From positions 5,697-69,696 of the forward strand of contig CAZQMF010000002.1 of the NCBI GenBank assembly GCA_964594235.1: a stretch of DNA of 64,000 nt, written 5' to 3'. Source of the DNA: an uncultured Acidimicrobiia bacterium. GTDB taxonomy: Bacteria; Actinomycetota; Acidimicrobiia; Spongiisociales; UBA4744. This document shows positions 568 through 54,691 of this stretch, piece by piece. The position numbers and the translations under genes are program-made. The notes beneath the pieces were generated by a model that did no database searches, was not told the DNA's origin, and saw only the letters and a list, made by a program, of their open reading frames with translations. Position 1 is the stretch's first letter, and each line of letters opens with the position of its first letter.

Positions 568-682
568 CACGGGTTCTCGGTTGTCGGTTTTCGGTTCTTG
601 GTAAGAAACTCGCCCTGGGGTCGCCGTGCGCGTTCAGGTCGCGTGCTTAGTGATGACCGGTGGCTGCGAGCGAAGCCGAGCG
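568..682 (+). repeat. Dispersed intergenic repeat, copy A. It carries the GGTTCTCGGTTGTCGGTTTTCGGTTCT module, a degenerate TGATGAC region and the GCGAGCGAAGC end.
   Basis: It aligns block-by-block with 18339-18470 and 40405-40645: ggttgtcggtt / ttcggttct / (c/g)tcgccct / gcgttc / tgatgac / gcgagcgaagc. Confidence 0.6.
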
Positions 683-11949: not shown

Positions 11950-12906
11950 ATGAACGGTTCACGGCACGCCGCCACCTATGAAGCAGGCGGCGAGGGGGCG
12001 CTGCTCGGAGCGGCAGCCGGGGAGATGTTGGTGTCGGGCACCCGTCGGGCGTACGGGGCCACGGTGCAACAGATGGTGTTCACCGCCTACCACCTCCTCC
12101 GATCTCAACCTATCCAAGGGGAGGCCATCGCAACGCATCTGCTCGAATTCGCGTACCCGTCAGACGGGCGTGCGAGTGTCTATCGATCGCCGTCGCCGTG
12201 GCTCGCGGCGTACATCGACGAAGCGAAGCTGTCGCCGCCTACACCGATGCCGTTCTTGAACCCCGGTGCGGCGATCAGGGCCGTGCCGATAGGCGTCTGG
12301 TTCAGAAAGGAACCTCAGGCATTGATCGAAGGTGCTATCGAGGCGGTCCGCGCAACGCACACCCGGCCCGAGTCGTCGATTGTCGGAAGCGTCGTCGCGG
12401 GAATGGTCGCAGCGGCAGGCTATGGCCAGTCGGGCCGAGACCTGGTGAACGGCGCCATCGAGGTCGCTCAACGAGCCGAGAGGACGCTCGATGTGTCAAC
12501 GCCCATCCCAGCGATGCTCGATCGCACTACCGAGCTCATTGTGGGCAGCGCCAAGGACGTGTCCGTCGAGGTGCTGTCGTGGGGGGCGAACGACACCGAA
12601 GTCGAAGTCGTAGCGATGGTCGTAGCGCTCGCATCGCGGGCGTTCGAAGAAGCGTCGGTCGTGGTGCGAAACGCGGCAGGCGTCGTCTCGCATGCGGAAT
12701 GGGTCGCTCCACTCGTGGGAGCCGTGGTTGGTGCCCGGAGTGGACTCCACAAGTGGCCGTGGCCGCTTCCGAACGATCTCTGGTTCGCCGAGCTGGGTAG
12801 ACGCCTCGCCCGGCAGAATGCCGTGGTCGAGGATCTTCCCGATCCGTACGCGGTCGAGGAGGTGCTCAACTACGAGCTCGCCACGGACACTCTCGTAGAG
12901 AGGTAG
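11950..12906 (+). CDS. ADP-ribosylglycohydrolase-like protein (divergent; catalytic Asp positions appear substituted)
   Basis: It has an N-terminal G-rich block (AGGEGALLGAAAGEML) and a C-terminal block (WGANDTEVEVVAMVVALA...GAVVGARSG) resembling the two metal-binding motifs of ADPRH. The in-frame ATG at 11950 avoids overlap with the divergent kinase gene. Confidence 0.4.
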   Translation: MNGSRHAATYEAGGEGALLGAAAGEMLVSGTRRAYGATVQQMVFTAYHLLRSQPIQGEAIATHLLEFAYPSDGRASVYRSPSPWLAAYIDEAKLSPPTPMPFLNPGAAIRAVPIGVWFRKEPQALIEGAIEAVRATHTRPESSIVGSVVAGMVAAAGYGQSGRDLVNGAIEVAQRAERTLDVSTPIPAMLDRTTELIVGSAKDVSVEVLSWGANDTEVEVVAMVVALASRAFEEASVVVRNAAGVVSHAEWVAPLVGAVVGARSGLHKWPWPLPNDLWFAELGRRLARQNAVVEDLPDPYAVEEVLNYELATDTLVER

Positions 12907-12924
12907 CGATCGAAGATCGCTGCC

Positions 12925-12965
12925 TCACAGCTCACAGCTGGCGACTGAAGACTGACGACTCACTC
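12925..12965 (+). repeat. Partial copy (B) of the dispersed repeat: CTGAAGACTGACGACTCACTC tail
   Basis: It matches the 3' end of copy D (gactgaagactgaa...gactcactc). It overlaps the last codons and stop of the minus-strand MFS gene. Confidence 0.4.
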
Positions 12966-14219: not shown

Positions 14220-15275
14220 TCAGAAGGTCACCGCGACGGAAATCAGTTCCTCGTGTCCGAGGAGTCCAGCCGCTGCCTCCACAGCTCGTTCGGCTTCATC
14301 CAGCGGAAACTCGTGACTCACCAGGTCGTCGAGTCTCGGATCGGTCTCCAAATGGCGGGCCGCCCAGTGGTACCCGGCGCTACTCGCCCCGAACCCTCCA
14401 CGAATCGTGATCTCTTTCAAGACGATCAGGTCGGAGAACAGCTGGTTGACAGCCCGTACTCCCTTCAGGGACGCGACGACGACGGTTCCCCCTGCCCGTA
14501 CGAGATCCAGTGCCGTGTGTATGGCCTCGGGGTCGTCCTTGGTCACGTCCAGCACGACCTCCGGCCGGGCGCCGAGGCTGTCGGCGACGGCGCCGGCGAC
14601 ATCGTCCTTGCGGGCGTCAACGACCATGTCGGCACCGAGTCGTCTGGCGAGTTCGAGCCGGTCTCGATTCTCCGTGAGACCGCTCACCCCGATCCAGCCT
14701 GCTCCCGCCTCCTTGGCGGCGATGACCGCCGCCAGACCTCGCGGTCCCGGTCCGAGGATCAGAACCGAGTCCCCGGTGCGAAGAGCCGAGATCTCGACCG
14801 TCCACGTGAACGCGTCGGCCAGCGCGTGGCCGAACGTGGCCACTGGCGCCTCGATATCGTCGCTGATCGGATGAAGTCGCGCCCCGGGATCCAGGTAGAG
14901 GTACTCGGCGAAGCCTCCCCAGAGGCCGGGGGGTTCCGTCGATGGCAGGCGGCCATATGCGTTGATCGGTCTGCGGAACGAGCACGAGTGAAGGTGTCCG
15001 AGGCATCGGCGGCATGCGCCACAGCGGATGGAGGACTCGACAATCACGCGTGTGCCGATCGGGATGTCGAACGAGTCGTCCACCAGGGATGCAACCCGTC
15101 CAACCACTTCGTGGCCGGGGATCAGTGGGTATCGGATGTATCGGTTCGTTCCCTGCCACACCTGGACATCCGAGCCGGTGACACCGGTCGCTTCGATCGC
15201 GAGCCAGCCGCCGGTTTCGACGGGCTGCAACGCGAATGTCGTTGCCGTGAAACGCTGCGGCTCAACCAACAGCAT
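14220..15275 (-). CDS. Zinc-dependent alcohol dehydrogenase (MDR family)
   Basis: It has a GroES-like N-terminal domain (LIPGHEVVGRV...), a structural-Zn Cys cluster (CGACRRCLGHLHSC) and a Rossmann domain (LILGPGPRGLAAVIAAKEAGAG). I chose the internal start MLLVEP... to avoid overlap with the next gene. Confidence 0.75.
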   Translation of the reverse strand: MLLVEPQRFTATTFALQPVETGGWLAIEATGVTGSDVQVWQGTNRYIRYPLIPGHEVVGRVASLVDDSFDIPIGTRVIVESSIRCGACRRCLGHLHSCSFRRPINAYGRLPSTEPPGLWGGFAEYLYLDPGARLHPISDDIEAPVATFGHALADAFTWTVEISALRTGDSVLILGPGPRGLAAVIAAKEAGAGWIGVSGLTENRDRLELARRLGADMVVDARKDDVAGAVADSLGARPEVVLDVTKDDPEAIHTALDLVRAGGTVVVASLKGVRAVNQLFSDLIVLKEITIRGGFGASSAGYHWAARHLETDPRLDDLVSHEFPLDEAERAVEAAAGLLGHEELISVAVTF

Positions 15276-15336
15276 GGCTTTGGCCGTTGACACACCACAC
15301 TCCTCCGCGGCGAGTGTATACCCGTCGGTACGGGCT

Positions 15337-16530
15337 TCAGCCGTTGAGGAACGCCGCCAGTCGGCGCATGCCCTCCTCGAGCTGGTCGTCGGCCAAGGCA
15401 TACGAAAACCTCGCGTATCCAGGTGCGCCGAATGCTTCGCCTGGAACGAATGCCACCAAGGCCTTCTCGAGGATGAGTTCGGCGAGTTCGGATGTGGACG
15501 TCGCGACCGATCCTCGAAGGGGTTTGTTCAGGAAAGCCTCCAGCGAGGGGAACGCATAGAACGCCCCGTGTGGCTCGGAGACTCGAACGCCTTCGATCTC
15601 GCTGAGCATTCGGTACATGGTTTGTCGTCGTCTGTCGAACGCCGCCCTCATCGACTCCACCGTCTCCATTCCGCCTCTCAGCGCGGTGAGAGCGGCGATC
15701 TGAGCGACGTTGTTGACGTTCGAAGTCGAGTGTGACTGGAGGTTCGATGCAGCCTTGATGACATCTGCTGGACCTACCATCCAGCCGACCCTCCATCCGG
15801 TCATTGCGTACGACTTGGCGACCCCGTTGACGATCACCGCACTGTTCCGCAGTTCGGGAACGATCCCCGGCATCGAGACGTACTCGGCGTCGCCGTACAC
15901 GAGGTACTCGTAGATGTCGTCGGTGAGCACCCAGACATTGCGTTCGACGGCCCACCGGCCGATCGCCTCCACTTCGTCTCGCGAGTAGACGGCACCACTC
16001 GGATTTGACGGCGACACGAACACGAGGAGCTTGGTGCGCGGCGTCCACGCCGCATCGAGTGCCTCGACAGATACTCGGAAGTCGTCCTCGACGCCGGCCT
16101 GCACCACGACCGGGACTCCGCCGGCCAATCGGATAGCCTCCGGGTAGGTGACCCAGTAGGGCGCGGGGAGAAGCACTTCGTCACCGATGTCGATGAGCGT
16201 TGCCATCGCCGCGAAGACTGCGTGTTTCCCGCCGTTGGTAACCAGCACCTGGCCGGCCCCGACCGTGAATCCGGCGTCGCGGGTGGTCTTCGCCGCAACC
16301 TCCTCTTTGAGCTCCGGTAGCCCTGACGCGGCCGAGTACTTGTGGTAGGTGGGATTCGCGCATGCTTCGGCTGCCGCAGCGACGATGTACGAAGGGGTCG
16401 CGAAGTCGGGCTCGCCTGCACCAAAGCCGATCACGTCGTGGCCGGCGACTCTCAACGCCCTCGCCTTCGCCGTCACGGCGAGCGTCGGCGACTCGGAAAT
16501 CGAGGCGATTCGTTGCGAGATCCTGGCCAT
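15337..16530 (-). CDS. Aspartate/aromatic aminotransferase, class I PLP-dependent
   Basis: It has GAGEPDF...LPELKEEV...NGGKHA...[10 protein letters not shown]...[10 protein letters not shown]...[16 protein letters not shown], the classical AspC family blocks. Confidence 0.85.
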
Positions 16531-17668: not shown

Positions 17669-18330
17669 CCTAGATCGACGTCGATGAGCGTGTGTGCCGG
17701 GCGGTACACACGCCGGGCCAGCGGAGAAAGCATGTTGAGGGGATGCAAGACGGGAAGGACCGGGGTCGATCGGGCCAGCGCACGCTCGGCGATGCCGGCG
17801 ATGCGCGCCGTGGTCCAGACCCTGTCGCCGAATCTCGCAGCGGCGGGAACCAAGACCACGTCTGACGCCTCTGGTGGGCCGAGAAGGACGTTCGAATCGA
17901 GATAGCCCAACCCTCTCGCTACAGCGACCATGTCGGTCACGAGATCGTGCTCTCGTTCGGTCACGACGAGTTCCAGAACCGCAAGCGTCGAGTCTCCGAG
18001 CGACGGTACCCCGATCGACTGCCGTTCCGCCAACCGTGAGGCGAGGACCCGGATCCACCTCGTATCGTGGAGAGCACGGTCGACGGCTTCGAGACCGGAC
18101 AGGACCCGACCGATGTCCGGGTCAACGGCGGGATCTGTCACGGCGAGGAGGAGGGCGCTATCGGCACGCTCCTTGCGGAAGCGTTGAATCCGGGGGAGCG
18201 CGTTCGACCAGTCCGAGTCGGCGAGCGATCGAAGCGCCGACACAACGGCGACAGCCGAGGCGAGGGGGTCGGCCCACTCCCTGCGGAAGGCGTCCGCCAA
18301 AACATCCATCGGATCCTGCATCGTCGACAA
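17647..18330 (-). CDS. Hypothetical protein (227 aa)
   Basis: Long ORF with codon-biased composition and no recognisable motif. Its 3' end overlaps the serC end by about 20 nt. Confidence 0.4.
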   Translation of the reverse strand: MSTMQDPMDVLADAFRREWADPLASAVAVVSALRSLADSDWSNALPRIQRFRKERADSALLLAVTDPAVDPDIGRVLSGLEAVDRALHDTRWIRVLASRLAERQSIGVPSLGDSTLAVLELVVTEREHDLVTDMVAVARGLGYLDSNVLLGPPEASDVVLVPAAARFGDRVWTTARIAGIAERALARSTPVLPVLHPLNMLSPLARRVYRPAHTLIDVDLGQRRSTT

Positions 18331-18338
18331 CCTACAAC

Positions 18339-18470
18339 AGGCGAGCTTCGCTCGCCGTGGTTGTCGGTTATGGGTTTTCGGTTCTCGGTGGGAGGGTCGC
18401 CCTACGGGTTGTCTGGGGCAGCGTTCTTACTGATGACTGATGACTGATGACTGCGAGCGAAGCGAACCGG
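18339..18470 (+). repeat. Dispersed intergenic repeat, copy C (left palindrome GGCGAGCTTCGCTCGCC, GGTTGTCGGTT/TTTTCGGTTCTCGG module, (TGACTGA)x3 array, right end GCGAGCGAAGCG)
   Basis: Homologous to 568-682 and 40405-40645. Its ends are reverse complements of each other (gcttcgctcgc / gcgagcgaagc), which is TIR-like. The heptamer array puts TGA in all three plus-strand frames. Confidence 0.65.
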
Positions 18471-18516
18471 GCAGCGCCCGCCTCTTCTAGTCTGGGTATG
18501 CGCACAAGGAGGAACA

Positions 18517-20064: not shown

Positions 20065-20075
20065 CTATGGCTGTG

Positions 20076-20100
20076 GGCGCGTCACCGACGCGCCCACAAG
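20076..20100. terminator. Bidirectional hairpin between the convergent P5C dehydrogenase and small-repeat-protein genes
   Basis: gtgggcgcg-tcaccga-cgcgcccac, a 9-bp perfect stem. Confidence 0.45.
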
Positions 20101-20115: not shown

Positions 20116-20436
20116 CTAGCCCTCGGTCGGCTCTTCGGTCACCTTCTCGACGGCCTCAGGCGCGTCTTCGGCTACGCCCCTGTTGCGGAAGTCCTCCGCG
20201 ACGTCCTTGGCCTTCTCGAACGCCTCTGAGGCTGCTTCCTTGGCCTTGCCCATCATCGGTGCGGCCTTCTCGCCGAGATCGCCTGCCATCTCCTTGGCCT
20301 TGCCCACCATCGGTGCGGCCTTCTCGCCGAGATCGTCGGCCATCTCCTTGGCCTTGCCCACCATCGGTGCGGCCTTCTCGCCGAGATCGTCGGCCATCTC
20401 CTTGGCCGAGCCGAATAACTTCTTGAGCGAATCCAT
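20116..20436 (-). CDS. Small hydrophilic protein with three tandem 18-aa repeats (AKEMADDLGEKAAPMVGK)
   Basis: The start MDSLKKLFG is preceded by AAGGAGAGG. The DNA has 3 x 54-bp near-identical tandem repeats (about 20247-20410). It has an acidic, lysine-rich, helical composition like LEA/CsbD/phasin-type stress proteins. Confidence 0.55.
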   Translation of the reverse strand: MDSLKKLFGSAKEMADDLGEKAAPMVGKAKEMADDLGEKAAPMVGKAKEMAGDLGEKAAPMMGKAKEAASEAFEKAKDVAEDFRNRGVAEDAPEAVEKVTEEPTEG

Positions 20437-26846: not shown

Positions 26847-26906
26847 CCTTCCCTCGTCGGCTGTGGGCAGGCTACTTGGCAGCGAGGGTCGGTGTCGGGA
26901 GGATCG

Positions 26907-26936
26907 ATCCGAGGATCGATCCTCCCGGTACCGGGT
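26907..26936. promoter_or_regulatory. Perfect 14-bp-arm palindrome GGGAGGATCGATCC-GA-GGATCGATCCTCCC in the 270-bp leader region of the MFS gene
   Basis: The arms are exact reverse complements. It lies about 60-90 nt upstream of the MFS start (minus strand). Confidence 0.4.
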
Positions 26937-27040: not shown

Positions 27041-27087
27041 CCTCCCCCAACACTCGGCCTGCGGCCTCGCGAGGGGAGGAAACGACG

Positions 27088-27116
27088 AGGTTTCGGGTAC
27101 TAGGCACCCGAAACCT
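27088..27116 (-). terminator. Rho-independent-type terminator after the cystathionine gamma-synthase-family gene
   Basis: The minus strand reads GGTTTCGGG-TGCCTAGTA-CCCGAAACC followed by TCGTCGTTTCC. Confidence 0.5.
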
Positions 27117-28378
27117 CAGACCGTTGCCAGTGCCTGCTCCAGATCCAGGATCAGATCGTCGGGGTGCTCCACCCCGATCGAGACTCGAACGAGCCCGTCG
27201 GTGATCCCATACCGCTTCTTGTCGACATCGGGCACACCGGCGTGTGTCATGGTGCCCGGATGTTCCGCCAGCGACTCATTGGATCCAAGGCTCACGGCCA
27301 GGTGGATCAATCGCAGAGCGTTCAGGAACCGGAACGCGCCGGCTTCCCCTCCGTCGACTTCGAATGAGATCATCGCGCCGGCGCCGAGGCACTGCTTCTC
27401 GTAGATCGCACGTTGCGGGTCGTGGGGTTCGATGAAACCCAGGTAGTTGACGTGGCTGACCTTCGGATGTCCGGCCAGGTAGTCGGCGACCTTCTCGGCG
27501 TTCTCGGCCTCCCGACGCATGCGCAGTGACAGCGTCTCCAGGCTGCGCATGAGGAGCCATCCGGTCCACGGCCCCGCATGGGTACCGAGGTGGCTGCGCA
27601 TCCCGCGGATCGGGCCGACATGAATCTCCGAGCCGAGGACCGCCCCCGCGATCAAGTCGCTGTGACCCCCCAAGTACTTGGTGGCACTGTAGATCACCAG
27701 GTCGGCGCCATGGTCGAGCGGACGCTGGAAGATCGGTCCGAGGAACGTGTTGTCGACGGCCAGTAGGACCTTGCGATCGGGAGTCGAAGCCGCCTGCGTC
27801 ACTGCGGCACACTCCTCTATGTCGAAGAGCGCGTTCGTCGGGTTGGCAGGTGTCTCGATGAGGATCATCCCGAGTGGCTTGCCCGAACTCGTCACTCGTC
27901 GCAGTAGCTGCTCCCGCGTCTCGTCGGGGAAGAACCCGATCGACTCGATGCCGAACTCGGGAAGGAACTCGTTGACCAGATGGTCTGTACCTCCGTAGAG
28001 GGGTTCGCTGTGCAGCAGGAGGTCGCCGGGTCGCAAGTGAACGAGCAGAGTCGTCGCGATCGCCGACATCCCGCTGCTGAACAGTGCTGCGGACTCGCTG
28101 CCGTCCCACAGACAGAGACGGTCCTCTGCGATCTCCAGATCGGGGTTGTTGAGGCGGCTGTAGATGAGGCCGACCTTCTCACCCGGTGCCGGTGGTCGTT
28201 TGCCTGTTGCGACTTCGAAAAACGCCTTGCCTTCTTCCGCGGTCTCGAACACGAATGTCGATGTCTGGAAGATGGGGCTCTTCACCGCCCCCTCGGACCA
28301 TGCCGGGTTGTAGCCGTACCCCATCATCAGGCTCTCGGGGCGAAGGTGCTTTCCCTCGATGGTGTCGTCCCACTTCAT
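27116..28378 (-). CDS. Cys/Met-metabolism PLP-dependent enzyme (cystathionine gamma-synthase / O-acylhomoserine sulfhydrylase / methionine gamma-lyase family)
   Basis: The start MKWDDTIEG... was chosen. It has YSRLNNP...SSGMSAIATTL...PLYGGT...DNTFLGPIFQRPLDHGADLVIYSATKYLGGHSDLIAGAV, with the PLP-Lys in SATKY. Confidence 0.8.
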   Translation of the reverse strand: MKWDDTIEGKHLRPESLMMGYGYNPAWSEGAVKSPIFQTSTFVFETAEEGKAFFEVATGKRPPAPGEKVGLIYSRLNNPDLEIAEDRLCLWDGSESAALFSSGMSAIATTLLVHLRPGDLLLHSEPLYGGTDHLVNEFLPEFGIESIGFFPDETREQLLRRVTSSGKPLGMILIETPANPTNALFDIEECAAVTQAASTPDRKVLLAVDNTFLGPIFQRPLDHGADLVIYSATKYLGGHSDLIAGAVLGSEIHVGPIRGMRSHLGTHAGPWTGWLLMRSLETLSLRMRREAENAEKVADYLAGHPKVSHVNYLGFIEPHDPQRAIYEKQCLGAGAMISFEVDGGEAGAFRFLNALRLIHLAVSLGSNESLAEHPGTMTHAGVPDVDKKRYGITDGLVRVSIGVEHPDDLILDLEQALATV

Positions 28379-28423: not shown

Positions 28424-29674
28424 TTGAGAATGATCCGCGTTGCGCGTGCCGCGTCGATCCTGATGGTCGTGATTGCCGCAGCTTGTTCGTCGGAGCAGCA
28501 GCTTGCTCCAACACAGACGAGTGCGATGCCGACCACGACTCAGGCTCTCGCCTCCACGACAACGTCGACGACCGAGAGTGCGACTACCACAGTCGAGATC
28601 ACCACGACGACTACGACGACCACCCTCCCCGCGCTCAAAGGGGTGCAGTTCGACGAAGTGGCAGACGGCTTCAACGATCCGCTGTTCGTGACGACCGCCC
28701 CGGACAGCTCCGATCTGTACGTCGTCGAACAGGGCGGCATCATCAAAGTCGTCCGGGACGGTCAGGTCCTCGACCAGCCGTTTCTGGACATCCACAGCCT
28801 GGTGACCCATGGGGGGAACGAACAGGGTCTCCTCGGTCTGGCGTTTCAGCCGAACTACCCCAGCGACGCTCGAGTGTTCGTCGACTACACGAACACAAGC
28901 GGCAACACCACTGTCGCGTCCTATCGGGTCGTCGGCGGTATCGCCGACCCGTCCTCGGCAGAGGTGCTCTTGAGCGTGAAGCAGCCGGCCTCGAACCACA
29001 ACGGCGGCATGGTGGTGTTCGGTCCCGACGGCTACCTGTACATCGGCCTCGGTGACGGCGGCGCATCTGGGGACAGGTTCGGCAACGGACAGAGCACGGA
29101 CACGCCGCTTGCGGCGATCCTCCGCGTCGACGTGTCCGGGTCCACCGGGTACGCGATCCCGCCCGGCAATCCGTTCACAGGAGGGGCACCGGAGATCTGG
29201 GACTACGGACTACGAAACCCATGGCGCTTCTCGTTCGACAGCGGGCTTCTCTACATCGGCGATGTCGGTCAGGACCACTACGAGGAGGTGGACGTCGCCC
29301 CAGCCGACCACGGCGGACTGAACTTCGGCTGGCCCATCACCGAGGGACTGCACTGCTACAAGCCATCCCGAGGCTGTGACACGACGGGCATCACCATGCC
29401 GGTGATCGAGTACAGCCACACGGATGGCTGTTCGATCACGGGAGGGTACGTGTACCGGGGTTCGGTGATTCCGGAACTGGACGGGACGTACTTCTACGCC
29501 GACTACTGCTCCGGGTGGATTCGCAGTTTCCGCTATGTCGGCGGTGGGGCCACCGACGAGCAGCAGTGGATCGATTCGATTGGCAACGTCACGTCTTTCG
29601 GGCTCGACGCCGACGGCGAGTTGCTCGTGGTGACTCGTGGCGGAACGATCTACCGGATGGTGCCGGTGCGCTGA
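28424..29674 (+). CDS. PQQ-dependent sugar dehydrogenase (soluble glucose/sorbosone dehydrogenase family) lipoprotein with a Thr-rich linker
   Basis: It has a lipobox (MVVIAAAC), then a T-rich low-complexity stretch, then the beta-propeller GSDH blocks (GLLGLAFQPNY...NHNGGMVVFGPDGYLYIGLGDGG...LRNPWRFSFD...GWPITEG). Confidence 0.8.
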   Translation: MRMIRVARAASILMVVIAAACSSEQQLAPTQTSAMPTTTQALASTTTSTTESATTTVEITTTTTTTTLPALKGVQFDEVADGFNDPLFVTTAPDSSDLYVVEQGGIIKVVRDGQVLDQPFLDIHSLVTHGGNEQGLLGLAFQPNYPSDARVFVDYTNTSGNTTVASYRVVGGIADPSSAEVLLSVKQPASNHNGGMVVFGPDGYLYIGLGDGGASGDRFGNGQSTDTPLAAILRVDVSGSTGYAIPPGNPFTGGAPEIWDYGLRNPWRFSFDSGLLYIGDVGQDHYEEVDVAPADHGGLNFGWPITEGLHCYKPSRGCDTTGITMPVIEYSHTDGCSITGGYVYRGSVIPELDGTYFYADYCSGWIRSFRYVGGGATDEQQWIDSIGNVTSFGLDADGELLVVTRGGTIYRMVPVR

Positions 29675-29675
29675 A

Positions 29676-29792
29676 CGTCCCCGTTCTTGTCAATCTCAGC
29701 CCCGCTGGCCGGGGCCCAGGTTGACGAGAACCAGACCCCTCCGTTCATGTCAATCTCAGCCCCGCTGGCCGGGGCCCAGGTTGACAAGAAGG
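29676..29792. repeat. Tandem direct duplication (2 x about 55 bp, period 60 bp) of an imperfect palindromic element GTCAATCTCAGCCCCG-CTGGC-CGGGGCCCAGGTTGAC. It fills the entire convergent intergenic space.
   Basis: Copy 1 is 29679-29730 and copy 2 is 29736-29790. The flanks ccgttc(t/a)tgtcaatc and ttgac(g/a)agaa are also conserved, so it is a duplication and not CRISPR. Confidence 0.65.
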
Positions 29793-29794
29793 CG

Positions 29795-30442
29795 CTAGGT
29801 CCGGGGCCCGCGACCTCGCCGGGCGTAGCGCGGGTATGGCCGGCCGGCAGGCCAGTAGCCCTGCCGGCGGTATGCCCAGTACTCGAACGGGTTGTGGTAG
29901 TAGGCGAACGTGTCGACGTTCTTCTGCAGGCCATCGCGCCGTCGGACCCATGCGGCAGTGCCGGCTAGTGCACCCAGGGCTGTCCAGGCGCCGTAGAGGA
30001 GCGGGAAGACAGGTCCGAACAATCGCGCTTGCCAGACGTGGACCATCTCGTGTCGTTCGAGCAAGTCGCGTCGGCCGCCCAGGTTGGTAACCGTGTTGCC
30101 GACCGTCATTGCGAAGTGCTTCCGCACGGTGACGCCGGTGTCGTAGACGTGACGGTTCTGCCGTTCGCTGAGGTCGGGTCGGTATGTTCCCCGGTCGCGT
30201 CTCGTCTGCTGCAGCGCGTGGACGCCGAGCGCTGCTCCCGTACCGATCAGCCCCCAGGTCGAATCCAGCACGTAGGCGACCCAGCCTGCGGGCCGGTTCC
30301 AGTCGTAGATCCGTCGGGAGCCGGATACGAGCCCGTTGAGGCCGCCGACCACCGCGCCGGGAACGCCGAGTCCGAGGGGAGTCAGTGCCGCTCCACCCAG
30401 TACCGCTCCTGACACGCCGGTCGCGAGCGTCTCACCGTTCAC
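29795..30442 (-). CDS. Hypothetical membrane protein with a Gly-zipper N-terminus and an HExxH motif (LLERHEMVHVWQ)
   Basis: The candidate GTG start at 30442 overlaps the stop of the upstream CPBP gene (GTGA). It has a Gly-rich hydrophobic N-terminus (GAVLGGAALTPLGLGVPGAVVGGLNGLVSG) and a C-terminal region with HEMVH and FAYYHNPFEYW. The longer 484-aa ORF in the track would overlap the CPBP gene. Confidence 0.4.
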   Translation of the reverse strand: MNGETLATGVSGAVLGGAALTPLGLGVPGAVVGGLNGLVSGSRRIYDWNRPAGWVAYVLDSTWGLIGTGAALGVHALQQTRRDRGTYRPDLSERQNRHVYDTGVTVRKHFAMTVGNTVTNLGGRRDLLERHEMVHVWQARLFGPVFPLLYGAWTALGALAGTAAWVRRRDGLQKNVDTFAYYHNPFEYWAYRRQGYWPAGRPYPRYARRGRGPRT

Positions 30443-31296
30443 AGCAACCCCTTGTGGAACAGCGCGAGGAGGTCCATGGCCCCTGCGATGGAGATGTGCA
30501 GCGCCGCTCCCCACCACACAGACCGGGTCTTGAGGCTCAGCGTGCCGAGTACGATCGCACCGAACATCGCCGCCAGCGCCTCGAGAATCGGCTTGGGGAA
30601 GTGCAGCATCACGTACGGGACCATCATCACGAAGATCGCCGAGTACCCGAGCCGCAGCTTCAGCCCGTGCACCATGAATCCTCTGAAGAAGAACTCCAAC
30701 GCGGCGAACTGGAGCGCGTAGAGCACCCACCACAACCACATGTACGGCCAGAAACTCTCGCCCGGTCCGAGGTGATAGAAGGAATACTTGGCGAGGAACG
30801 GAGCCGACGACGACACAACGATGATGAACGGCATACTCACGGCAAGAAGCAGCGCATACACCCACACGTGCGACGCCGAGCCTCGAACTCTCAGTCCAAA
30901 GTCTCGCAGCCGGCCGCCTATCACATAACGGATTGCGAACACCGGGATGGCCACGTACGCGAAGATGTGCACGATCGCCCACAGGGCGAGTCCGTTGAAT
31001 TGGGCCGAGGGCGACGTCGTGAGCCAGGCATCGACCCCGTCGGCGGCTCCTCCGAGACCCACCGTGTGCAGGAGCGTCACGAGCCACCAACCGTCGCGGG
31101 ATGCGTAGTCTCGGATCAGGAGGGCCAACGCCGAGGCAACGAGGATCGTCACCATGTCTCTGGTTGCCTTCGCCTCGGACGTCACCTCGCGATAGAGGTC
31201 CGATTCGGCATCGGCGGTCACCCGCACGTCCGTGACGTAGGTCTGCCACAGGCGGACCGGGAGCGACGGTGTGCGCGGGAGGGTTTCGATGGCCAC
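30439..31296 (-). CDS. CPBP-family intramembrane metalloprotease (CAAX protease / Abi)
   Basis: It has multiple TM helices, motif 1 EExxxR (ALEFFFRGF) and later conserved His-containing helices (FGAIVLGTL...ALHISIAGAMD). Confidence 0.75.
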   Translation of the reverse strand: MAIETLPRTPSLPVRLWQTYVTDVRVTADAESDLYREVTSEAKATRDMVTILVASALALLIRDYASRDGWWLVTLLHTVGLGGAADGVDAWLTTSPSAQFNGLALWAIVHIFAYVAIPVFAIRYVIGGRLRDFGLRVRGSASHVWVYALLLAVSMPFIIVVSSSAPFLAKYSFYHLGPGESFWPYMWLWWVLYALQFAALEFFFRGFMVHGLKLRLGYSAIFVMMVPYVMLHFPKPILEALAAMFGAIVLGTLSLKTRSVWWGAALHISIAGAMDLLALFHKGLL

Positions 31297-34635: not shown

Positions 34636-35955
34636 CTACAGCGAGTACAAGCCGTCGAGGGTCTGAAGCACGATCTCGTGCAGGGTGCCGTCATCCGGCA
34701 GCGTTGTCATCATCCCGTACATCGCCGCCTGTCCGCTCGATGCCAGCTCGGGATGCGCTCGCACATCGTCGACGGCGCTCCGAAGATCGTCCAGGAACTC
34801 TTCCACGATCCCTGCGTGGGCAGGTGTCACCATGAAGTGGAGCGACGCCGGCTTGATCTGCCGGTCGACATGCCACCCGCGAGCCTCCAACGCGTCCCCG
34901 ACCGCGTAGGTGTCGACATCGACTCCCCGGAAAGCGAAGACGCTCAGTCTGGGGTCTCCGAGGATCTCCAAACCCTCCACCTTTCGGACTCCTTCGACAA
35001 GCCGCCGCGAGATGTCGAGGATCTGCTCGGTTATCGCCAGGTAGCCGTTCTGGCCGATCGCCTGCATAGCCGCCCACGCGGCCGCAATCGGCCCACCGGG
35101 GCGGGTGCCGGCCATCGACGGTGAGGCGTAGATTCCTCCCGGCCAGTCGCTGGTGACATGGAATTGAAACCTGCGGAGCTCAGGCGTTCGGTAGAGGATG
35201 GTGGATGCCCCTTTGGCCCCGAACCCGTACTTGTGAACATCAGCAGACATCGACGTCACACCGGACGCACGGAAGTCCCACACGCCGAGTGAGACTCCGA
35301 GTTGTTCAGCCCACGGAACGAGGAAGCCGCCCAGGCAGGCATCGACGTGCATCCCGATGTCATGCGCGGCGGCGATCGACGCCAGCTCCTCGATCGGGTC
35401 GACCTGACCGAACGGGTAGTCGGGAGCCGAGCCGACCATGAGGATCGTGTTCGGGGTGATGGCTGCCTCCATCGCCCCCAGGTCGGCCCTCAGGTCATCT
35501 GCCAGGGGGACCCGCACCTGTCGCACCCCGAAGTAGGCGGCAGCCTTGTCGAACGCTGCGTGCGCGGTCACAGGCAACACCATCTCTGGTTCCGAGTTCC
35601 CCTTGGTCGCCGCCGCCCAGTCTCTGTACGTCTTCACGGTCGCGAGCAGGCTCTCCGTGCCACCGGAGGTCATTGTGCCGGCGACCTGAGCGTCCCCGTT
35701 GAGCATCGTGGCGGTCATGCGAACCACCTCGGCCTCGAACCGACGCAACGCGGGAAACGCCATCGGGTTGAGTGCATTCTCGGAGAAGAACAGCCCGTGG
35801 GCGTCCTTCAGGAATGTCGTGTGGTCGTCGCCGGCGTGATAGACGAGACTCCACGTGCGACCGTCCTCCCAACTCGCTTCGGCCTCCGCGAGAGACTTCA
35901 TCTCGCTCAGGATCTGGTCGTGTGGTCTGCCGACAGGCGGGATCTGGGTGTCCAT
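34636..35955 (-). CDS. PLP-dependent decarboxylase (group II; glutamate decarboxylase / sphingosine-1-phosphate lyase-like)
   Basis: Start MDTQIPP. It has TSGGTESLL...HVDACLGGF...the PLP-Lys in SADVHKYGFGAKGAS. Confidence 0.8.
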   Translation of the reverse strand: MDTQIPPVGRPHDQILSEMKSLAEAEASWEDGRTWSLVYHAGDDHTTFLKDAHGLFFSENALNPMAFPALRRFEAEVVRMTATMLNGDAQVAGTMTSGGTESLLATVKTYRDWAAATKGNSEPEMVLPVTAHAAFDKAAAYFGVRQVRVPLADDLRADLGAMEAAITPNTILMVGSAPDYPFGQVDPIEELASIAAAHDIGMHVDACLGGFLVPWAEQLGVSLGVWDFRASGVTSMSADVHKYGFGAKGASTILYRTPELRRFQFHVTSDWPGGIYASPSMAGTRPGGPIAAAWAAMQAIGQNGYLAITEQILDISRRLVEGVRKVEGLEILGDPRLSVFAFRGVDVDTYAVGDALEARGWHVDRQIKPASLHFMVTPAHAGIVEEFLDDLRSAVDDVRAHPELASSGQAAMYGMMTTLPDDGTLHEIVLQTLDGLYSL

Positions 35956-36018
35956 GACCGCAGCGTAGCGACGACGGGTGACGCGGTTGCGTCCCTCGTC
36001 GTCGGTACCATCGGCGCG

Positions 36019-37158
36019 GTGAAGATCCTGCACACAGCCGACTGGCACGTCGGCCGTGCCATCCGCGGTCGAAGTCGGGCGGACGAACACCGGGCGGTTC
36101 TCGAGGAGATCGCATCGATCGGCGCCAGGGAGGCTGTCGATCTGATCGCCGTCGCCGGCGACATCTTCGACGTGGTCGCGCCGACCGCGGAGTCCGAACA
36201 GATCGTCTACCGGGCGCTACTGCGATTTGCCGACATTGCACCCGTCGTGATGGTCGCAGGCAACCACGACAATCCGCGGCGCCTCGACGCGGTAGCGCCC
36301 CTTCTCGAACTCGGCCGGGTGCATGTGGTCGCGACACCGATGAAGCCGGACGAAGGCGGTGTCGTGAAGATCGAAACCAGTTCCGGGGAGGTCGCAAGAG
36401 TGGCGATGCTGCCGTTCGTCACGCAACGCGGCATCGTCTCGGCGTCCGCGCTCATGGACCTCGAGGCGTACGAGCATGGGGCGCTGTATGCCGAGCGGCT
36501 CACTGCGATCCTCGCGATGCTCACTGAAGGGATCACGACGGACGATGTCAACATCGTTGTCGCCCACGTGATGGTCGCCGAGGGCGTCCTCGGTGGGGGA
36601 GAACGCAGCGCACACACGGTCTTCGACTACTGGGTGCCGGCGGGAGCGTTCGACGGCGCCCTCTCATACGTCGCCCTCGGGCATCTGCACCGGCCGCAGC
36701 AGACCCCCGCCGCGGCTCCTGTGTGGTACGCAGGGTCACCACTTCAGCTCGACTTTGGGGAAACCGAGGATGAGAAAGCCGTGCTCGTCGTGGATGTTCA
36801 ACCGGGACTGCCTGCCGCGGTCACTCAGGTGCCCCTCACGTCCGGGCGACGTTTGCAGCAGCTCCGAGGGAGCATCGAGTCGCTCGAACCCCTTGCCGGC
36901 ACAACCGGTGACGCGTACCTGAAGATCGTCCTCGAAGAGCCGGCGAGAGCGGGGCTCGCCGATCAGGTACGAGAACTGTTTCCCGAAGCCGTCGATGTCG
37001 TTCTCGCGGCACCCGAGGGTCGGCACCGCAGCACCCCTCGCGAAGCGCGATTGGGTCGTGTTCCGCACGAACTGTTCGTCGAGTACCTCGCCGAGGCCAA
37101 CGCTTCCGATGAGCGAGTCGTAGTGTTGTTCGACGAGCTCCTGGAGGAGGCTCAGTGA
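36019..37158 (+). CDS. sbcD: Nuclease SbcCD subunit D (Mre11-family calcineurin-like phosphoesterase)
   Basis: GTG start. It has ILHTADWHVG (motif I), AGDIFD (II), AGNHD (III), VAHVMV (IV) and LGHLH (V). Confidence 0.8.
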   Translation: MKILHTADWHVGRAIRGRSRADEHRAVLEEIASIGAREAVDLIAVAGDIFDVVAPTAESEQIVYRALLRFADIAPVVMVAGNHDNPRRLDAVAPLLELGRVHVVATPMKPDEGGVVKIETSSGEVARVAMLPFVTQRGIVSASALMDLEAYEHGALYAERLTAILAMLTEGITTDDVNIVVAHVMVAEGVLGGGERSAHTVFDYWVPAGAFDGALSYVALGHLHRPQQTPAAAPVWYAGSPLQLDFGETEDEKAVLVVDVQPGLPAAVTQVPLTSGRRLQQLRGSIESLEPLAGTTGDAYLKIVLEEPARAGLADQVRELFPEAVDVVLAAPEGRHRSTPREARLGRVPHELFVEYLAEANASDERVVVLFDELLEEAQ

Positions 37159-39506
37159 GGCCGGTCGAGCTCGAGATCGCGGGATTCACCGCATATCGGG
37201 ACGAGACAACGATCGACTTTCGAAACGCCGACCTGTTCGCCCTCACCGGTCCGACCGGATCAGGCAAGTCCAGCATCGTCGACGCGATCGTGTTCGCTCT
37301 CTACGGGTCCGTCCCGAGATATGGGGACCGGCGCGCCGTCGAGCCGGTCATCACGCTCGGCAAGAACGAAGCTCGCATCCAGTTCGACTTCACCGTCGGC
37401 GACGATGCGTACCGTGTTGCCAGGGTCGTCCGACGCACCAAGGGCGGGGGCGCGACCACCGCCGAAGCACGCCTCGAACATGGCCGTGTCACGCTCGCAT
37501 CCGGCGCAGACGAGGTCACCAAGAAGGTCGAGGAGCTTCTCGGACTTGCCTATGAGCACTTCATCAAGGCCGTCGTCCTTCCGCAGGGCGAGTTCGCTCG
37601 ATTCCTCCATGACAAACCTCGTGAGCGACAGGAGCTGCTGCGAGAGCTCCTGGACCTCCGCGTCTACCGGCGCATCCGGGATCTCGCCAATGAACGCAAG
37701 TCGGTTGCAGATCGACTGCTCGCAGGGCACCAACGCGAGGTCGATCTGCTTGCCGAGAGGGCCGGTGGTGATGAGGACGCCGCTTCCCGTCGTGTATCCG
37801 AACTCGAGCGGCTCCGCGACACCATCGCCAGGATCCGCACGCAGGTGGCATCGATCGACGAACAACTGAAGGATGCGACGAAGCAGATCGCCGACGAAGA
37901 GGCAGCTATGTCGGCCCTGGCCATCCGGTCTCCGGACGGTCTCGACGAGCTGGTGGGTCGGATTTCCGATGCAGACACCGCGGTCGACAAAGCCAAGTCC
38001 GCCATGGTGAAGGCGAGCGAGGCACTGAGCGCGCATGAGCAGTCGATCGCAGGGCTCCCGAACCCGGCGATACTCGAGTCTCAGATTGCGCAGCAACGAT
38101 CCCTCGAGGACCTCCTTGGTCGGCACGAGCGCGCGACCGAACAGCTTGCCAAGTCGGCCGCGGACATCGAACAGAAGCGCCGGACTGCCGGCGCGGTCGC
38201 ACAGGCACACTCGCAGACGGAGGAGGAACTCGAACGGCTCCGGCGCGCACACGCGGCGCACGAACTCGCTGCGAACGTCGTAGTCGGTGAGCCGTGCCCG
38301 GTGTGCGGAGTCCCCATCGCAGAGATCCCGAAGGTCGAACCGATCGCGGACGTGGAACGAGCCGTAGCCGACGTTGCTCGCCGAACAGCCGATCTCGATG
38401 CTGCACGAAGGGCCCTGACCGAAGCTGAACTCGCCGGTGAGCGATCGAGGGCTACTGCGGACGAGATCTCCGCTCAGATCGGCGCGCTTCGAGCCGGCCT
38501 CGATGGTGTCCCCGGTATCGACGAGCTGGCTCGAACCCTCGCTGCCACTGCGGCTGCACAGCAACGACTCGCCGAGCTGAAGGCAACTGCACTCACCTCA
38601 GCCAACGAGCTCCGCGCCGCCGAACAGCGTCGGGAAGCGCTCACCGAAGCGCGGGCCGAGGCGCTTGCCAAATTCCACGGCGCACGAGATCGCGTCGCTC
38701 ACCTGGAGCCACCACCGGTAGTGCCGGACGATCTTGCCATCGCATGGGCGGCATTGACCGAGTGGGCAGTCGCCCGCTCACAGGAGACGCACAAGCGGCT
38801 GGAAGGGCTCCGAGCCGACGCGAAGCAGCTCGTGGACGATAGATCCCGCCTCACCGAGGATCTCGACACGCACCTTGCCGGCATGGGCGCGGATCTCACG
38901 CCGGATGAGGCCGTGTTCTCGGCCCGCAAAGACCTCGAAGGCATACGGGAGGCGAAACAGCGAACCAAGGAACTCGCAGCAGACATCACCGCCGAGAAGG
39001 ACCGAAGTCACGTCGCCGCAGCACTCTCGCGACACCTGCACTCCAACCGGTTCGAGTCATGGATCCTCGAAGAGGCACTCATCGGACTGACCGTGGGTGC
39101 CAATCAGCTGCTCGACGAGCTGTCTTCTGGCATCTACTCGCTCGAGATCGACAAGGCGGGTTTCACCGTCATCGACCATCGCAACGCCGATCAGCGACGC
39201 TCCGTCCGCACGCTGTCAGGAGGCGAGACGTTCCTCGTGTCCCTTGCCTTGGCACTCTCACTCTCTGAGGAGCTCACCAGGATGTCATCGCAGGGGAAGC
39301 TGGAGTCGATCCTTCTCGACGAGGGATTCGGCACCCTCGATCAAGAGACCCTGGACGTGGTGGCCTCGGTTGTCCAGCAGCTCGGCGCCAAAGGACTCAC
39401 CGTTGGTCTCATCAGCCATGTGCCCGACCTCGCCGAGCAGGTACCGACCCGGTTCGTCGTCACCAAGGATGTCAGCGGGGCACACGTCGAACGGATCGAC
39501 GCATGA
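37155..39506 (+). CDS. sbcC: Nuclease SbcCD subunit C (Rad50/SMC-like ATPase)
   Basis: The GTG overlaps the sbcD stop (GTGA). It has N-terminal Walker A (LTGPTGSGKSS), a long coiled-coil, a CPVCG zinc hook (GEPCPVCGVP), and a C-terminal signature (LSGGETFLVSLALALSLS) with D-loop/Walker B (LLDEGFGTLD). Confidence 0.85.
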   Translation: MRPVELEIAGFTAYRDETTIDFRNADLFALTGPTGSGKSSIVDAIVFALYGSVPRYGDRRAVEPVITLGKNEARIQFDFTVGDDAYRVARVVRRTKGGGATTAEARLEHGRVTLASGADEVTKKVEELLGLAYEHFIKAVVLPQGEFARFLHDKPRERQELLRELLDLRVYRRIRDLANERKSVADRLLAGHQREVDLLAERAGGDEDAASRRVSELERLRDTIARIRTQVASIDEQLKDATKQIADEEAAMSALAIRSPDGLDELVGRISDADTAVDKAKSAMVKASEALSAHEQSIAGLPNPAILESQIAQQRSLEDLLGRHERATEQLAKSAADIEQKRRTAGAVAQAHSQTEEELERLRRAHAAHELAANVVVGEPCPVCGVPIAEIPKVEPIADVERAVADVARRTADLDAARRALTEAELAGERSRATADEISAQIGALRAGLDGVPGIDELARTLAATAAAQQRLAELKATALTSANELRAAEQRREALTEARAEALAKFHGARDRVAHLEPPPVVPDDLAIAWAALTEWAVARSQETHKRLEGLRADAKQLVDDRSRLTEDLDTHLAGMGADLTPDEAVFSARKDLEGIREAKQRTKELAADITAEKDRSHVAAALSRHLHSNRFESWILEEALIGLTVGANQLLDELSSGIYSLEIDKAGFTVIDHRNADQRRSVRTLSGGETFLVSLALALSLSEELTRMSSQGKLESILLDEGFGTLDQETLDVVASVVQQLGAKGLTVGLISHVPDLAEQVPTRFVVTKDVSGAHVERIDA

Positions 39507-40405: not shown

Positions 40406-40645
40406 GCGAGCTGCGCTCGCAGGTTGTCGGTTCTCAGTATTCGGTAGGGAGGCTCGCTGCGCTCGCCGTTCTCGGTTTTTGGTTCTGGGTTTTCTTTAGG
40501 ACACTCGCCGTGCGGCTTTGGTGTGATCCAGGCTGCGTTCTTACTGAAGTATTGATGACTGATGACTGATGACTGAAGACTGAAGACTCATGACTGAAGA
40601 CTGAAGACTGAATACTGTCGGCCGCAGGCTGACTCACTCGCTTTT
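40405..40645 (+). repeat. Dispersed intergenic repeat, expanded copy D, with a long degenerate heptamer array
   Basis: It has the left palindrome GGCGAGCTGCGCTCGC, the GGTTGTCGGTTCTC / TTTTTGGTTCTGGGTTTTC module, GCGTTCTTACTGA, then about 11 heptamers TGA(T/A)GAC/TGAATAC. The 3' end GACTCACTCGC overlaps the gpsA stop. Confidence 0.65.
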
Positions 40646-54666: not shown

Positions 54667-54691
54667 TCTTACGCGCATTGTGCGCGTAAGA
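54667..54691 (-). terminator. Perfect 11-bp-arm palindrome TCTTACGCGCA-TTG-TGCGCGTAAGA followed (minus strand) by CGATTTTGTAGTT; probable terminator of the S9 peptidase gene
   Basis: Exact inverted repeat. A T-tract follows in the transcription direction of the upstream minus-strand gene. Confidence 0.5.

Follow-up and report, generated by a model that had tools for sequence, protein, structure and literature searches.

The 64,000-nucleotide stretch analyzed here, from an uncultured Acidimicrobiia bacterium (GenBank assembly GCA_964594235.1, contig CAZQMF010000002.1, positions 5,697 to 69,696; hereafter the window), carries a family of dispersed intergenic repeats in which two arrays of seven-nucleotide units face each other as the arms of a predicted hairpin. 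The family has not been described previously, although TGACTGA-type arrays themselves are already known from other phyla. Its copies are homologous and dispersed, they have predicted hairpin potential, they change length by 7-nt slippage, and they are gained, lost and turned over. With somewhat better than even confidence, we interpret the family as a lineage-restricted, non-coding mosaic palindromic repeat of Acidimicrobiia, of the REP (repetitive extragenic palindrome)/BIME/REPIN, MITE (miniature inverted-repeat transposable element) or BOX kind, whose slippage-prone heptamer arms form a hairpin in RNA or single-stranded DNA.

The window contains three full copies, A (568-682), C (18340-18467) and D (40406-40617, also listed as winD), and one degenerate stub or tail (12905-12962), which agrees with the three full copies and one partial copy proposed in an initial annotation made from the letters alone. 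Copies A, C and D are homologous, with a pairwise identity of 62-70%, and a family profile hidden Markov model (nhmmer) recovers them with E values of 2e-31 (C), 6e-30 (D) and 1e-21 (A); the stub is weak (E 0.066), and the profile has no match in the window outside these four places. With up to three mismatches, the 5' motif GGTTNTCGGTTNTCGGTT matches ten times in the window against 0.41 expected, ten out of ten within A, C and D, and TGACTGATGACTGA matches 15 times where 5.5 are expected, with 13 of the matches located in C, D and the tail. The terminal 15-mers are likewise confined to the copies within the window. The elements are 115-240 nt long and non-coding, with no open reading frame (ORF), and their GC content is 52-63%, compared with 64% for the window, being G+T-rich on the + strand. 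The genes beside the copies (VanW-like, ADP-ribosylglycohydrolase, MFS transporter, aldehyde dehydrogenase, NurA-like and GpsA) are mutually unrelated, so that a local segmental duplication, which the initial annotation had named as an outcome that would refute it, is excluded as the source of the similarity. A known RNA family was also ruled out: the Rfam scan suggested in the initial annotation matched no family at the gathering thresholds of Rfam 15 over the window, E-value scans of copies C and A found nothing, and that of copy D gave chance snoRNA-like matches on the array only. A tRNA/tmRNA search found none, and the unit strings were not found in this context in the literature searched.

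Alignment of 11-13 distinct copies, including those on related stretches from genome and metagenome scans (L numbers), defines an ordered mosaic of five parts. The first is a GC-rich terminal 15-17-mer composed of two GCGAGC/GCTCGC half-sites around a 3-nt spacer (TTC/TGC), in which the half-site orientation can flip to give hairpin, direct or everted versions. It is followed by (GGTTNTC)n with two to five units (variants AGTTNTC, AGTCNTC and GGTCNTC), by a heptamer-like GGTRRGA and an apical block of about 25-35 nt (..CTCGCCC.....GCGTTCTTAC), by (GANGACT)n, equivalent to (TGACTGA)n, with three to more than ten units (variants GANAACC and GANGACC), and by the complementary terminal motif GCGAGC-GAA-GC(G/T)(A/C)GC. 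In related contigs the terminal motifs are present only inside such elements. Terminal inverted repeats occur at both ends of C (11/11) and, as read from the sequences, of L147 (14/15), L134 and L137, while the repeat is absent from one end in A, D, L132p/m and L135. The blocks listed in the initial annotation were all located at the given places on the + strand, and the ends of copy C, described there as reverse complements, are exactly so over 11 nt (18344-18354 and 18453-18463). The shared block order given there needs correction for A, whose 3' arm is degenerate (TGATGACCGGTGGCTG), which carries GCGTGCTTAGTGA in place of GCGTTCTTACTGA, and which has no left palindrome. Two placements had to be revised. 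Copy A, assigned to a gene-end context, actually lies between convergent genes (+ stop at 564-566, - stop at 683-685), its 5' arm beginning 6 nt past the TGA stop at 564-566, and copy D ends at 40617 rather than 40645, as 40618-40645 is older spacer. In copy D, the 5' module is present twice and the right terminal motif is absent; its first palindrome lies directly 3' of a TAG stop (40403-40405).

The mutual complementarity of the two heptamer arrays was overlooked in the initial annotation. Between GGUUNUC and GANGACU, each unit contributes four Watson-Crick pairs, two fixed G·U wobbles (G·T in DNA) and a variable N·N position. The + strand RNA of copy C folds into a single hairpin at -69.6 kcal/mol (z -5.0), compared with -36.8 kcal/mol (z -1.2) for its reverse complement. 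Among 20 distinct copies, the + strand folds better by 10-35 kcal/mol in 12 and about equally well in the other eight; for copy A the fold is not significant (z +0.5), and yet this copy is conserved. Counted over the arms of 18 copies, G·U pairs number 102 and A·C mismatches 10, and in an alignment of 13 cores 93.4% of the cells are paired in register, as opposed to 24-56% when the partner is slid by one to three columns. The left and right 15-mers pair as well, so that the inverted palindrome pair closes the element in a larger hairpin; the outer 15-mers of L147 are also paired in its minimum free energy fold, and from end to end the element is therefore a single long imperfect palindrome. 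On the basis of these folds, the + strand is predicted to form, as RNA or single-stranded DNA, one hairpin of 40-60 bp, and the reverse strand is predicted to fold poorly.

Beyond the window, at least 15 further loci with the same architecture were found in related Acidimicrobiia metagenome-assembled genomes (MAGs) and metagenomes. A scan of 185,579 species genomes with the pattern (GACTGAW)2GACTGA gave matches in many phyla, those listed including Cyanobacteria, Bacteroidota, Acidobacteriota, Chloroflexota, Planctomycetota and Desulfobacterota; the matches listed include true homologues of the window family in Acidimicrobiia MAGs (L065, L098, L064 and L054). A metagenome scan with the 3' junction CTGAWGACTGCGAGCGAAGC, which selects for the 3' end alone, returned 19 stretches from about ten distinct loci, mostly in Joint Genome Institute (JGI) metagenomes of the series that holds the window contigs, and these stretches independently contain the 5' GGTT array together with the apical block. 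Contigs with an identical protein locate the window on a 199-kb metagenome-assembly contig at ENA and in contigs of JGI metagenomes, which are taken to be salt-marsh samples. For two window proteins, the homologues bear annotations as proteins of Acidimicrobiia MAGs. The profile furthermore recovered full copies that no scan had selected (in L132, L138, L147, L131, L065 and L098), and some related contigs hold three or four copies in 10-15 kb in both orientations. Since no family copy was detectable in 80 kb from four relatives, the family appears confined to a narrow clade. Phage or plasmid carriage was ruled out, as matches among plasmids, phages and IMG/VR contained no family copy; the sole match in the plasmid and phage search was a bare heptamer array in a Nostoc plasmid. 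L139, L142 and L144 from the metagenome scan were set aside as probable chance 20-mer matches without family architecture. In L142 (989-1018), a low-GC contig that is probably from Bacteroidota, the exact 20-mer CTGATGACTGCGAGCGAAGC lies in phase with NNACTNA heptamers, which may be chance or convergence.

Comparison of orthologous sites reveals how individual copies change. Other metagenomes have versions of copy D that are 7 and 28 nt shorter, and several short-read contigs break off within its array; a length that changes in 7-nt steps demonstrates replication slippage. Copies A and C, with short or imperfect arrays, are invariant, A being unchanged in five metagenomes. At the site orthologous to that of copy D, L150 (87% amino acid identity) has a 49-nt spacer with the palindrome-like remnant GGCCTCGCTTCGCCCGC and a small TCGGCCGCAGGCCGA hairpin, the same as follows copy D in the window, and L151 (74% identity) has a 52-nt spacer with a simple 14-bp hairpin. 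Judged from these relatives, copy D appears to be a lineage-specific gain. Other sites are occupied in several species while their heptamers differ, namely the site 3' of a HIT-family gene in L136, L138 and L132, the era-recO spacer in L132 and L138, and the site past a gene ending ...PF* in L134 and L064. The same is true of a fourth site. In the spacer between the aldehyde dehydrogenase gene and a 224-aa gene, where copy C resides, L141 has the same element, L161 only GCGAGCGAAGCGAGC, and L159 (CTGTCAG)n...(CTGTTCG)n. Apical blocks define subfamilies whose members (A with L147/L098, D with L065) occupy non-orthologous loci in different species, which implies copy-and-paste or recombination at some time. 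There are also near-identical neighboring pairs, inverted and 1.5 kb apart in L132, in tandem in L147, and in L065; a tandem pair is present in L145 too. As a separate observation, the inverted near-identical copies at L132 2425-4110 bracket recO-uppS within era-recO-uppS-aaRS (the aminoacyl-tRNA synthetase gene), a layout like that of a composite transposon.

A history without any mobility, in which arrays grow in place by slippage beside very stable GC mini-hairpins (GCGAGC-GAA/TTC-GCTCGC) that stall replication, and in which loci resemble each other through convergence plus gene conversion between nearby copies, would account for several of these features. The same palindrome is found beside (GGTTNTC), joined to (CGTAYCT)n in L147 (at 7219) and L137, beside (AACAGCG) in L064, and beside (CTGTCAG)/(CTGTTCG) at the C-orthologous site; the most similar copies are physical neighbors, orthologous sites have long been occupied, and heptamers are the commonest long simple repeats in prokaryotes, according to Mrazek 2007 as cited in PMC4679880. 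However, slippage alone cannot explain the sharing of apical blocks because these 25-35-nt blocks are non-repetitive and occur in a common order at non-orthologous loci in different species, and the family is absent from the 80 kb of relatives with the same spacers. We regard this explanation as distinctly improbable.

In the mosaic-repeat account that we favor, arrays lengthen and shorten by 7-nt replication slippage. Whole modules would duplicate locally, and copy-and-paste or recombination would have carried copies to intergenic sites that are not homologous. Once in place they would persist for long periods while the heptamer sequence turns over. A transcribed hairpin would probably amount to double-stranded RNA that blocks exonucleases or serves as an RNase III substrate, and we see such activity as a side effect, perhaps exploited at some sites, rather than as the reason for the family.

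Several results weigh against this account. About half of the copies are without one terminal motif, no matching direct repeats that could represent a target-site duplication were found around 22 copies, and a tblastn search of about 300 kb of sequence positive for the family, using approximate probes for IS608 TnpA and E. coli RayT, detected neither a transposase nor a RAYT (REP-associated tyrosine transposase), a weak negative as the search covered a small part of any genome. A clean empty site was not seen either, L150 retaining the remnant and L151 a short related hairpin at the D site, and the long persistence at orthologous sites could mean function instead of selfish residence. The hairpin has no covariation behind it. 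In the covariation analysis that had been suggested, RNAalifold found no compensatory pair in the family alignment; shuffling the partners among sequences left 94.0% of cells paired versus 93.4% observed, with 445 of 500 shuffles at or above the observed value; and arms paired with their own partners at -33.0 kcal/mol versus -34.3 kcal/mol with arms from other copies (permutation p 0.83). As all three tests were negative, covariation support was ruled out, and the tests gave no sign of selection on the stem. Because own and foreign arms pair alike, the stem belongs to the consensus of the family, and its G·U asymmetry may simply go back to a founder copy.

Assignment to an established class of mobile palindromes is hampered by the same tests. 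The MITE-like reading in the initial annotation is supported as far as the dispersal and the inverted-repeat ends are concerned, the latter being complete in only some copies, and the copies are small, non-coding and multicopy; nevertheless, in view of the missing target-site duplications, the family should not be filed as MITE. CTAG or TAG recurs at the borders, and seven of seven adjacent TAG stops are preceded by C. CTAG as an IS5/IS630-like target-site duplication was rejected because no element matched on both sides; the recurrence is due to neighboring stop codons and conserved -10-like TAGNNT boxes. A REP-style GTAG was likewise rejected, being not conserved, with an outer flank of NAG|GC on the left and CTA(C/G) on the right in only 5 of 16 copies. 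The REP/BIME/REPIN elements of Proteobacteria are short GC-rich imperfect palindromes, extragenic and often in inverted pairs that form a hairpin of about 100 nt; they are mosaic, occur in many copies, frequently at gene ends and inside operons, and their effects on mRNA are secondary to their spread. The window family is alike in build, including the inverted palindrome pair within a larger hairpin, but two heptamer microsatellites and an apical block serve as the spacer, and the host belongs to Actinomycetota. It should not be filed as REP/REPIN either, because it has no conserved GTAG and no RAYT was found with the approximate probes. The Correia/NEMIS elements of Neisseria and the enterobacterial ERIC are non-coding, 100-160 nt long, with terminal inverted repeats, and form RNA hairpins when co-transcribed; their folding depends on orientation, RNase III or RNase E effects are associated with them, and their presence differs between relatives. 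Unlike the window family, with no target duplication, a length set by 7-nt slippage and termini that are often missing, they have defined TA target duplications and a fixed length. The pneumococcal BOX, boxA-(boxB)n-boxC, is a modular intergenic repeat with a variable tandem internal module between pairable end modules, but that module measures 45 nt and is not a stem, whereas here 7-nt units form both stem arms. The family is like MITE and REP/REPIN elements in architecture but does not fit their definitions.

With respect to neighboring genes, about six to seven independent sites lie between convergent genes, three to four between divergent genes, and the remainder between co-directional genes, four in sense and two in antisense. 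This context bears on a dedicated cis-acting RNA, either a stabilizer or U-tract-less terminator in the 3' untranslated region (UTR) or an RNase III-processed rheostat tuned by heptamer number, which we consider rather unlikely. Its attraction lies in the strand-asymmetric folding through G·U pairs, in the many copies that begin within 0-3 nt of a co-oriented gene's stop codon, on its 3' side (winD, L134, L064 and L132c), in sites that stay occupied across species though the heptamers change, in the variable unit number at copy D, and in the experimental precedent of hmw1A (PMC12721329). A co-oriented gene end lies on the 5' side at about 10 of 15-16 independent sites, but this bias (about 10 vs 5-6) is not significant. 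Strict sense orientation is ruled out by at least two sites antisense to both genes of a co-directional pair: L132p, flanked by uppS and the aminoacyl-tRNA synthetase gene, and L147, flanked by a 206-aa gene and an MR_MLE gene. The initial annotation had noted that all copies are on the + strand, which is true of four out of four in the window but not significant (p 0.125), and related contigs carry both orientations; a replication-strand bias was not supported either, orientations being mixed within 12 kb in L132 and L147. No U-tract terminators were found at the hairpin bases, which rules out an intrinsic (Rho-independent) terminator, and an integron attC was excluded by the absence of the core motifs. 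The lack of covariation and the close relatives without an element at the D site also speak against a dedicated cis-acting RNA.

Copy C deserves separate mention in this regard. On one side of it, a -10-like TAGGTT lies 7 nt upstream of the ATG of the leftward 224-aa gene, and a -10-like TANNNT box 6-7 nt before the start is present at four orthologous loci (window 18321-18334; L141, L159 and L161), which suggests that the mRNA of this gene may be leaderless. On the other side, a -10-like TAGTCT lies about 20 nt upstream of the Shine-Dalgarno sequence and TTG start of the aldehyde dehydrogenase gene, where a conserved TAG(T/G)CT box (window 18488-18516 region) precedes GCGCACAAGGAGG-N5-TTG. 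Copy C would accordingly be placed between two divergent promoters and outside any UTR, which counts against a dedicated cis-acting RNA.

An independently transcribed small-RNA gene family, one of the readings offered in the initial annotation, would fit one stably folding strand, multiple copies and the common strand of the window copies. No sigma-70-like promoters were found at the elements, however, nor were terminator-like signals, and upstream the copies border on gene ends that leave no space for a promoter. The length is highly variable (115-240 nt), and neither an Rfam match nor covariation was obtained. We consider this explanation very unlikely.

Equally unlikely is a translational insulator or protein-binding heptamer array. 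The TGACTGA array does place TGA in all three forward frames, as had been claimed, and the reverse strand is free of stops in pure (TCAGTCA)n, although not throughout, as the junction unit TTACTGA gives one TAA. It is also in line with an insulator that the (GACTGAN)n arrays of other phyla are often directly upstream of start codons (see also PMC4679880) and that a stop-rich array, when paired, forms the 3' arm 29 times and the 5' arm seven times. The positions in the window fit poorly: in three of the four copies (A, D and the tail) the array points toward the 3' end of a convergent gene, copy C alone lies ahead of a start codon, at 64 nt, and the upstream gene has already terminated 60-140 nt before the array. 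In addition, copy A lost its array and is yet conserved unchanged in five metagenomes, and a convergent gene reads into the stop-free strand.

The 29 and seven cases come from a sample of 110 (GACTGAN)n arrays from many phyla, in which a strongly complementary partner was upstream in the former and downstream in the latter; for strict TCAGTC arrays in this sample the counts are eight and zero. Therefore, in arrays of this kind that pair, the stop-rich arm tends to be on the 3' side. The opposite, 5' arm is in most cases outside Acidimicrobiia the exact complement (NTCAGTC), and in the window family GGTT replaces AGTC, two transitions that keep the pairing on one strand only. Among the matches listed, about one third of the (GACTGAN)n arrays (L011-L130) form hairpins with an upstream complementary array, and some lie inside conserved operons, for instance between rpmA and obg (L099). 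The Acidimicrobiia family could conceivably be one branch of a cross-phylum class of microsatellite-armed expandable hairpins, 5'-(NTCAGTC or G·U equivalent)n - loop - (GACTGAN)n-3', with the stop-rich array conserved as the 3' arm, that act as tunable RNA elements, a speculative extension to which we assign a low probability. If it were correct, slippage in the arms would alter stem length and thereby RNase III processing, mRNA stability or translation of a neighboring gene, the single-locus hmw1A mechanism would be generalized to many bacteria, and the shift from AGTC to GGTT in a high-GC lineage would keep the RNA hairpin and remove the DNA cruciform.

Three systems in the literature are close to parts of the element. 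TAACTGA-type intergenic heptamer direct repeats of Beggiatoaceae, Cyanobacteria and Bacteroidetes, whose function is unknown, have forward stops in three frames, 7-nt indels between strains and assembly breaks (MacGregor 2015, PMC4679880). The window family has in common with these NNACTGA repeats the tandem heptamers with an ACTGA core, the forward stops in all frames that exclude them from ORFs, the intergenic location, the 7-nt indel polymorphism, the assembly breaks and the scattered cross-phylum distribution. In contrast, NNACTGA repeats have been described as unstructured and mostly just upstream of starts (PMC4679880), whereas here the array is one hairpin arm facing a quasi-complementary second array in a larger conserved element that lies mostly away from starts. 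The family thus contains an NNACTGA-type array without the start-codon position typical of that class. In Geobacter metallireducens, 'class 3' sites consist of five tandem MTYCTGA heptanucleotides in a hairpin arrangement (PMC2700814). They resemble the window family as multicopy NNNCTGA heptamer arrays in inverted pairs in intergenic DNA, but they were proposed to be regulator-binding sites and have no GC terminal palindromes, and the polarity of the Geobacter loci seen (L027 and L071) is opposite, with the stop-rich arm first. Among analogues proven by experiment, the closest is the 5' UTR of hmw1A in Haemophilus influenzae, in which a left (ATCTTTC)n arm and a right arm rich in G form a long hairpin that RNase III cleaves, repeat number setting expression (Rapun-Araiz 2025, PMC12721329). 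In both cases a heptamer simple sequence repeat is an arm of a long RNA hairpin (in silico for the window family) and pairs with a G-rich partner by wobble, and the repeat number varies in populations. However, hmw1A is a single locus with a defined 5' UTR and a proven RNase III cleavage and expression effect, while the window family, known here from sequence alone, is dispersed over all intergenic contexts and has arrays as both arms.

If the family is only selfish or neutral, it is still of practical interest in that it breaks short-read assemblies of salt-marsh Acidimicrobiia, offers variable-number tandem repeat markers for strain typing and provides an actinobacterial REP/MITE-like example. 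If the hairpin is used, it would link the common prokaryotic heptamers with the cross-phylum NNACTGA arrays, which have no known role, through microsatellite stems whose length, and hence RNase III susceptibility or exonuclease block, mutates at high frequency. The systematic G·U design is a natural experiment that separates RNA-level from DNA-level selection on palindromes, because it keeps the RNA hairpin on one strand and destroys the DNA cruciform.

Table 1. Parts of the four copies in the window and the adjoining older hairpin.
Feature	Position	Strand	Details
Copy A, 5' arm	572-606	+	GGTTCTC GGTTGTC GGTTTTC GGTTCTT GGTAAGA; no left terminal palindrome
Copy A, apical block	607-640	+	AACTCGCCCTGGGG...GCGTTCAGGTC; nearest relatives are L147/L098 copies, from another MAG and another locus
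Copy A, degenerate 3' arm	641-665	+	GCGTGCTTAGTGATGACCGGTGGCT; TGATGACCGGTGGCTG
Copy A, right terminal motif	666-682	+	GCGAGCGAAGCCGAGCG; abuts CTA 683-685, stop of the convergent VanW gene
Degenerate stub	12905-12962	+	fills a convergent spacer, 58 nt
Stub, palindrome	12905-12921	+	AGCGATC-GAA-GATCGCT
Stub, (CTCACAG)2	12924-12939	+	
Stub, (NGACTGA)3	12942-12962	+	last unit overlaps the MFS gene's TCA stop
Copy C, left terminal palindrome	18340-18356	+	GGCGAGC-TTC-GCTCGCC; local hairpin or pairing with 18453-18463
Copy C, 5' arm	18359-18393	+	GGTTGTC GGTTATG GGTTTTC GGTTCTC GGTGGGA
Copy C, apical block	18394-18420	+	GGGTCGCCCTACGGGTTGTCTGGGGCA
Copy C, 3' arm	18421-18452	+	GCGTTCTTAC, then (TGATGAC)n = (TGACTGA)3.6; G·U-wobble pairing with 5' arm
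Copy C, right terminal motif	18453-18467	+	GCGAGC-GAA-GCGAAC
Copy D, first 5' module	40406-40449	+	palindrome GCGAGC-TGC-GCTCGC, then GGTTGTC GGTTCTC AGTATTC GGTAGGG
Copy D, second 5' module	40451-40501	+	GGCTCGC-TGC-GCTCGCC, then GTTCTC GGTTTTT GGTTCTG GGTTTTC TTTAGGA
Copy D, apical block	40502-40534	+	CACTCGCCGTGCGG...ATCCAGGCT; related to L065 copies
Copy D, 3' arm	40535-40617	+	GCGTTCTTACTGA plus 10.6 units TGACTGA/AGACTGA
Older small hairpin	40618-40633	.	TCGGCC-GCA-GGCTGA (TCGGCCGCAGGCTGA); outside the element, beside gpsA stop TCA 40634-40636

The older hairpin TCGGCCGCAGGCTGA beside copy D is kept in the relative L150, which is without the element. Upstream of copy D, at 35302-40405, an SbcD-like (Metallophos) and an SbcC-like (783 aa) gene form a pair, followed by a gene for a 300-aa NurA-domain protein that overlaps the SbcC gene by 4 nt, and this SbcD-SbcC-NurA cluster is conserved in Acidimicrobiia relatives. 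SbcCD cleaves DNA hairpins, and the SbcCD-like pair may be relevant to the tolerance of long palindromes.

The window also contains repeats and genes outside the family. For the gene at 14220-15401, one look-up returned no record. The convergent spacer between the ORFs at 28424-29674 (+) and 29795-31249 (-) holds, at 29681-29790, a different palindromic unit of 50 nt, CCGTTCTTGTCAATCTCAG-CCCCGCTGGCCGGGG-CCCAGGTTGACGAGAA, in two tandem copies that are spaced at 60 nt and 96% identical; the pair folds at -68 kcal/mol. A 54-nt tandem repeat (20237-20407; 3.2 copies, 97% identity) lies in a small ORF, and its minus strand encodes MADDLGEKAAPMVGKAKD three times. Perfect hairpins with 11-14-bp stems, unrelated to the family, are located at 26896-26927, 27087-27117, 20072-20098 and 54667-54691. 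In related Actinomycetota MAGs, other intergenic heptamers include (CTGTCAG)n, (CTGTTCG)n = (AACAGCG)n, (ACGGTTG)n paired with (ACGATGG)n, (CGGGARA)n, (ATGCCAG)n and (CCCAGAY)n, at loci such as L159/L160 1-180, L064 80-110, L012 2436-2497 and 7838-7901, and L072 138-159 and 4447-4477; some of these families again form strand-asymmetric hairpins.

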